Source: Shigella phage sb3
Strand: one strand, 5' to 3'
Sequence record: PQ666541
Length of the DNA stretch: 64,000 nucleotides
Positions 21,815-22,086 of this stretch are shown here, in pieces. Every line of letters begins with the position of its first letter. Position 1 is the first letter of the stretch. A model generated the notes under the pieces. It was not told the DNA's origin. It did no database searches and saw only the letters and a program-made list of their open reading frames with translations. The translations under genes were made by a program, and so were the position numbers.

Positions 21815-21885
21815 TATTTTTCCTTTCAATTCATGGGTTAGTAGATTAATTATACAATAAATATATAAAGCAATAAGGAGGACAT

Positions 21886-22086
21886 ATGGTACAAAAATTA
21901 ATGGCACTTGTTAATGCCATAAAAGGTAATAAAAAACGTATAGCTTTTACTATTTCTGCTATGGTAGGAATTTTACTTTGGAATTTTGTTTTATCGCCAG
22001 TTGCTATTGCTCATGGTGTTAGTATTCCAGTAATTACTCTCGATACATTCGTAGATTTAGCATTTGCTTTAGTTGGGTTAATTTAA
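21886..22086 (+). CDS. Small membrane protein on the plus strand (66 aa), hypothetical
   Basis: Strong AAGGAGGA SD 4 nt before ATG; two hydrophobic segments; no competing minus-strand ORF; convergent with gene 61. Confidence 0.5.
   Translation: MVQKLMALVNAIKGNKKRIAFTISAMVGILLWNFVLSPVAIAHGVSIPVITLDTFVDLAFALVGLI

Follow-up and report, generated by a model that had tools for sequence, protein, structure and literature searches.

A probable conserved inner-membrane protein gene with its own late-type promoter between genes 56 and 61 of Shigella phage sb3

Class II holins are proteins of ~70 aa with two hydrophobic segments, and the typical holin C-terminus is a hydrophilic, highly charged tail. 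Small membrane proteins of this kind, the late genes of T4, and the T4 middle promoter P56/69 are the described systems with which the locus reported here is best compared. Among 50 listed T4 late promoters, some of which are without proof of in vivo activity, 32 have the perfect box TATAAATA, 9 carry an A at -13, and one exception is a TA-to-AT change (PMC2988020). All early and middle transcripts of T4 run counter-clockwise, whereas late ones are made in both directions (PMC2988020). The MotA box of middle promoters has the consensus wwwTGCTTtA and lies 12±1 bp from the -10 element (PMC2988021). In T4, the middle promoter P56/69, with a mapped start at 16813, 7 nt after TATAAT, is flanked by dam and gene 56, at a distance from the small gene considered in this study.

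We examined a 64,000-nt stretch of the Shigella phage sb3 genome (PQ666541; hereafter the window). Our findings support a model, which we regard as highly probable, where the interval between gene 56 and gene 61 holds a real and conserved gene for a small inner-membrane protein, equipped with a late-type promoter of its own (table 1). The window is a segment of a Tequatrovirus (T4-like) genome; positions 21700-22300 are 98-99% identical to many T4-like phages of Escherichia, Shigella, and Salmonella, and near-identical records label the locus "DNA primase | hypothetical protein | dCTP pyrophosphatase". An earlier note on this DNA had recognized a single open frame between the two genes, 66 aa long and on the plus strand. 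A list of the ORFs of at least 30 aa in 21815-22082 confirmed it, the one exception being a GTG-initiated extension of gene 56, which we judge spurious. The arrangement of the neighbors proposed in the same note is likewise borne out. Gene 56, from which the small gene diverges, lies on the minus strand with its ATG at 21814, and the convergent stop codons of the small gene and gene 61 do overlap: the TAA of the former occupies 22084-22086, the stop of the latter is the complement of 22083-22085, and the overlap is the palindrome TTAA. The same 4-nt overlap of annotated ends is found in Mosigvirus, Dhakavirus, Klebsiella phage phi1_146055, Kanagawavirus, and Moonvirus loci. A Shine-Dalgarno 4 nt before the ATG, also claimed, is essentially right; the spacing is 3 nt (CAT) if counted from AAGGAGGA and 4 nt with the core AAGGAGG. 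In 12 tabulated loci AGGAG or GGAGG occurs 3-7 nt before the ATG, and GGAGG is also present in two further loci.

Table 1. Features of the interval between genes 56 and 61 in the window (positions are those of the whole stretch).
Feature	Position	Strand	Basis
Small membrane-protein CDS, 66 aa	21886..22086 (stop included)	+	ORF list, ATG start; PHROG 2024 / RB32 ORF030w family
Shine-Dalgarno TAAGGAGGA	21874..21882	+	Read from sequence; 3-4 nt before ATG
T4 late-promoter-like box AATAAATA, positions -13 to -6	21856..21863	+	Motif match and conservation; 22 nt before ATG
Predicted middle (MotA-dependent) promoter of gene 56	21849..21875	-	Sequence; layout as in T4 P56/69
Terminator-like hairpin ATGGCATTAACAAGTGCCAT, then TAATTTTTGT (T-run)	21891..21920	-	Consensus scan
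Gene 56 (dCTPase), divergent left neighbor	21296..21814	-	ORF list and near-identical annotated genomes
Gene 61 (DNA primase), convergent right neighbor	22083..23111	-	ORF list and near-identical annotated genomes
TTAA common to both convergent stops	22083..22086	.	Sequence

That a gene exists here is already known: the family is PHROG 2024, the gene was first named RB32ORF030w (also VR7ORF033w), and hundreds of records, covering most relatives, carry it as a "hypothetical protein". The phrog_2024 profile matches the window protein at E = 1.3e-30, with residues 2-66 aligned to profile positions 1-65 of 65, and it also matches all of 36 diverse members. By tblastn, 692 phage records match the small protein, 685 of them over at least 80% of its length. 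By identity the records form two groups: Tequatrovirus, with T4 and T2 among them, at 80-100%, and a set of 190 records at below 60%, for example those of Mosigvirus and Gaprivervirus. The annotation of Shigella phage SF2-1 includes a protein 100% identical to that of sb3. When 5.8 billion proteins were searched with a profile, 115 clusters at 90% identity were obtained, and an exhaustive HMM search of 1.84 billion representatives yielded 19 representatives. Apart from a few truncated fragments, members are 61-69 aa long; where a long contig is on record for a member, its length is ~165-175 kb. We inspected the loci of T4, VR7, mar005P1, KIT01, Klebsiella phi1_146055, PM2, Kosakonia 305, PEi26, PKO111, and Moon, in 10 named genera of Tevenvirinae, and in every one the small gene is convergent with gene 61 on the opposite strand. 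On the left the neighbor varies: it is gene 56 here, dam rather than gene 56 in T4, and in others a homing endonuclease or a different ORF. Judged by these comparisons of sequence, the gene is conserved in all enterobacterial T4 relatives examined. Salmonella S16-like phages give tblastn matches at comparable genome coordinates.

Gaprivervirus genomes have the gene twice in tandem; the second copy has diverged but retains the W-N...P...G...P signature and is found immediately ahead of the gene 61 stop (2701-2970 in the locus of phage VR7, L002; ~2207-2407 in L008 and L012). This copy belongs to the subfamily that occurs alone in Dhakavirus, Klebsiella phages, and PM2. In VR7 it is unannotated, and its C-terminus is seemingly frameshifted, reading into gene 61, while the copies of VR25 and VR26 end normally (...IIGYFTGIPS).

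The earlier note had described the product as a membrane protein with two hydrophobic segments. Topology prediction agrees with a membrane location, giving one strong predicted transmembrane helix behind a basic N-terminus. Two hydrophobic segments are indeed present in the sb3 sequence, where Kyte-Doolittle 19-residue means reach 2.0 (residues 19-41) and 1.9 (residues 48-66), but the second is not a conserved transmembrane segment; family-wide, the first alone is strongly hydrophobic. Thus, in the four genera profiled the Kyte-Doolittle mean of the first segment is 1.9-2.4, while that of the C-terminal segment is 1.9-2.1 here and in Mosigvirus, 1.2 in Dhakavirus, and 0.7 in Kanagawavirus. The first 18 residues include five to seven basic and zero to two acidic residues in the same four genera. 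An AlphaFold model based on a 36-sequence alignment (pLDDT 81.5) places helices at 2-12, 16-42, and 52-63, the second hydrophobic segment being modeled as a 12-residue helix, too short to span the bilayer. Across 36 diverse sequences W32, N33, and P38 are invariant, and A40, G44, and P48 are at least 90% conserved. The sb3 protein displays the full family signature: a basic N-terminus, one transmembrane segment, and W-N-[FLY]-x3-P-x-A-x3-G-x3-P. We infer a single-pass inner-membrane protein, N-in, with a short periplasmic tail. The conserved face W32-N33...P38...A40...G44...P48 suggests a helix-helix contact with another membrane protein or with itself. Sequence searches of Pfam, NCBIfam, PADLOC, and PDB returned no match to the small protein; the AlphaFold model, compared with viral structures by Foldseek, matched family members only, and Rfam, searched with both strands, gave just a sub-threshold miRNA match, meaningless here.

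Could such a protein be a holin, a pinholin, or an antiholin-type lysis protein, permeabilizing the inner membrane or tuning holin T? We consider this rather unlikely. The protein is small, predicted to be membrane-embedded and predicted to be late, and in size, location, and timing it resembles small phage holins, T4 holin T among them; in addition, one UniProt ortholog entry is named "Holin", probably an automatic name. Of the features of holins, small size and at least one transmembrane domain are found, but a charged C-terminal tail is not, nor is linkage to lysis genes. Charges cluster at the N-terminus instead of the C-terminus; residues 45-66, at the C-terminus, are hydrophobic (Kyte-Doolittle mean 1.9) and in sb3 include two acidic residues but none that is basic, and the second hydrophobic segment, besides being short, lacks conservation. 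None of the T4-type loci inspected has a lysis gene beside the small gene, its neighbors being primase, dCTPase, dam, and other ORFs. Moreover, T4 lysis is already explained by t, e, rI, rIII, and pseT.2/pseT.3, which we counted against a holin function.

Distant members of the family also bear on the holin question. They lie on metagenomic contigs with a gene order that is not T4-like and match phrog_2024 at 1e-9 to 1e-11; when compared with the phage collection by tblastn, P0127 and P0130 return the T4-type ORF beside primase and P0132 finds nothing there. Two distant members match the holin PHROG phrog_3427 weakly (E = 5e-4 and 2e-3), and on two contigs (L022 and L023) the distant member is the first of four consecutive genes on one strand, the last of them for a T4-type lysozyme, adjoined by a transmembrane and coiled-coil protein with a weak Rz-like spanin match. 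Yet phrog_3427 is matched by none of the 36 T4-type members, reciprocal tblastn with the distant members returned no annotated holin, and their most constant neighbor is endonuclease VII, not lysozyme, as in L026 and L028-L030, where the distant member comes directly after the endonuclease VII gene. The block on these four contigs consists of a tail protein, a 94-aa transmembrane and coiled-coil protein, endonuclease VII, and then the member (50-69 aa), whose start overlaps the endonuclease stop in L028-L030. On another, short contig (L025, 129-1383) a 59-aa distant member lies 17 nt upstream of a 352-aa RelA/SpoT-domain protein.

In a region otherwise transcribed the other way, the small gene should need its own promoter, as the earlier note had pointed out, and a candidate is present, the gp55-type late-promoter box AATAAATA, 22 nt before the ATG. 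This box differs from TATAAATA at the first base in sb3 and most relatives; it is the A(-13) variant, the commonest deviation among the listed T4 late promoters. Of 14 loci, 13 have NATAAATA at 13-22 nt upstream of the ATG; the fourteenth, Moon, has ATTAAATA, a TA-to-AT variant. On its plus strand, the 64-kb window contains just two copies of ATAAATA, and only 0.1% of random positions have one 9-30 nt upstream. By look, the upstream sequences of different genera are dissimilar except for the late box and the Shine-Dalgarno. As in T4 late genes, an 8-bp box stands about one helical turn before the predicted start, the leader is short, the Shine-Dalgarno strong, and a -35 element absent; unlike them, the candidate box falls within the spacer of a middle promoter that points the other way, in a block otherwise read counter-clockwise. 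A late transcript would start near 21869 and have a 17-nt leader, and the small protein is probably made late in infection. That the gene is real but not late, with a sigma-70 or other promoter or low constitutive expression, seems very unlikely. The one-base departure of the sb3 box from the consensus is in its favor, but no promoter-like site turned up on the plus strand when the interval from gene 56 to the small-gene ATG was scanned for sigma-70 promoters, and the late box is the sole upstream element besides the Shine-Dalgarno that is kept across genera, with the perfect TATAAATA in the loci of Klebsiella phi1_146055 and Kosakonia 305.

Three other promoter-like matches were seen in the window. 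The sole perfect TATAAATA on its plus strand, at 10736-10743, falls within a gene of the minus strand (10437..10808) and is followed by no convincing plus-strand ORF; it may have arisen by chance or may serve as an antisense late promoter. On the minus strand, a perfect TATAAATA at 21285-21292 lies between the gene 56 stop (21296) and a 78-aa ORF (21017..21253) that reads like a variant of soc (small outer capsid protein), annotated at the same position in Mosigvirus and Dhakavirus; this box fits a putative soc late promoter. A perfect plus-strand MotA-box match within the small ORF, TTTGCTTTA at 22063-22071 (codons for AFAL), was rejected as a promoter: it has no properly spaced -10 and a polarity opposite to that of middle transcription, and is probably a chance match.

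The opposing middle promoter belongs to gene 56. It is composed of a MotA box TATTGCTTTA (21875 to 21866), an 11-nt spacer, and a -10 TATAAT (21854 to 21849), followed by the gene 56 leader, and its elements agree with the MotA consensus and spacing. The MotA box core (ATTGCTT) and the TATAAT -10 are the same in T4 P56/69, and the leader, as far as the gene 56 ATG, differs very little. Given that the T4 start falls 7 nt after TATAAT, the start of gene 56 is predicted at ~21842, and the two predicted starts diverge, 27 bp apart, the late box of the small gene lying inside the middle-promoter spacer. In T4 the two elements are apart. Comparison of window positions 21253-22083 with T4 revealed that sb3 is without dam, which in T4 stands between gene 56 and the small gene, and without segF, which stands between soc and gene 56; due to the absence of dam, the gene 56 middle promoter abuts the small gene and overlaps its late box. 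A further minus-strand element is a terminator-like hairpin (21920 to 21901) followed by a T-run, ~165 nt after the gene 61 stop and within codons 6-12 of the small gene. T4 has the identical sequence, but by eye no such hairpin is evident in Mosigvirus or VR7; it could end gene 61 transcripts ahead of the gene 56 promoter.

With the two genes so placed, the main product might instead be a late antisense RNA running into gene 61 and silencing primase or early messages, the peptide being secondary. Because the stops overlap, every transcript that spans the ORF is complementary to the gene 61 mRNA at its 3' end; besides, no plus-strand intrinsic terminator was found within 4 kb downstream of the small ORF. 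We nevertheless hold this reading to be highly improbable, for selection acts on the amino-acid sequence. In PKO111 (L020, ~1693-1711), a GC-rich hairpin, AAGGGGCTTCGGCCCCTT, which looks like a bidirectional terminator, stands between the small gene and the primase gene in place of overlapping stops; thus, running on into gene 61 as antisense is not conserved among these phages. An antisense effect could still arise as a by-product.

The substitutions point to a protein-coding gene. Within genera, dN/dS estimated by Nei-Gojobori is 0.07-0.22, indicating purifying selection in the plus-strand frame. By the same method, pS and pN are 0.17 and 0.02 between the window and T4, 0.47 and 0.05 between Kosakonia 305 and Edwardsiella PEi26, and 0.79 and 0.17 between Dhakavirus and a Klebsiella phage, and omega is 0.13-0.22 for two Mosigvirus loci. 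Variable sites within four genera number 22, 8, and 53 at codon positions 1, 2, and 3 (chi-square p = 5e-9). The ORF, the Shine-Dalgarno, and the upstream promoter box are all kept in genera whose proteins are merely 18-55% identical to that of the window. A real plus-strand gene, as read by the earlier note, is therefore supported by the dN/dS values and the excess at third positions, and conservation of frame and ribosome-binding site, which the note had proposed as a check, is found in the loci tabulated. A chance open frame in a non-coding spacer, whose true content would be minus-strand (gene 61 terminator, gene 56 middle promoter, and 5' leader), is barely credible and was rejected because of purifying selection, codon-phase bias, and conservation of the frame: a predicted middle promoter and a terminator-like hairpin do occupy the interval, and the T4 RefSeq entry has no annotation in it, but the promoter takes up only ~35 bp upstream of the ORF, the hairpin is by eye not evident outside Tequatrovirus, substitutions track the plus-strand codon phase, and the ORF, its length, and its Shine-Dalgarno survive the loss of DNA similarity.

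Overall, we propose that the small gene would be expressed as follows. Late in infection, RNA polymerase modified by gp55/gp33/gp45 would recognize AATAAATA at 21856-21863 and initiate near 21869, giving a leader of ~17 nt; the same ~30 bp would then fire leftward in the middle period, toward gene 56 and MotA-dependent, and rightward in the late period. The basic N-terminus of the protein (KGNKKR) would remain cytoplasmic, residues ~16-42 would cross the inner membrane, and a tail of ~25 residues, with the conserved G-x-x-x-P loop, an acidic residue, and the short helix, would lie at the periplasmic face. The protein would act through contacts between its helix and that of a membrane partner or of another copy of itself. 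Our tentative suggestion is that it might do so in some late event at the envelope, for example lysis timing, lysis inhibition, or exclusion. Equally speculative is the wider proposal that a late inner-membrane protein missed by T4 annotation takes part in a late envelope process, for instance the control of lysis timing, lysis inhibition, or superinfection, is distantly related to the membrane proteins of the lysozyme runs of other phages, and is governed by a promoter that forms a compact middle-to-late strand switch with that of gene 56.

The T4 RefSeq record (NC_000866.4) has no feature in the 309-bp gap between dam (ending at 17625) and gene 61 (starting at 17935), yet this gap holds a 95.5%-identical ORF, and almost all relatives retain the gene there under purifying selection; the T2 record (NC_054931.1) is likewise without an annotation of the small gene. 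A literature search by ORF name and possible gene names found no paper treating the small ORF, and none of the T4 Ribo-seq, proteomic data, or start-site maps that it sought was found to cover the small-gene locus. What our analysis adds is the evidence of selection, the conserved late box nested in the gene 56 middle promoter, the topology model, the range of the family, and the omission from T4 and T2; otherwise this is an ordinary, already catalogued hypothetical protein and not a new kind of system. Annotating the small gene would correct the gene list of T4, the reference organism for this phage group, and the gene is flagged as coding for a putative late membrane protein for work on T-even lysis, lysis inhibition, and envelope interaction. 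The late box within the spacer of an opposing middle promoter is, in turn, a candidate for studying how RNA polymerase reprogramming switches strands.
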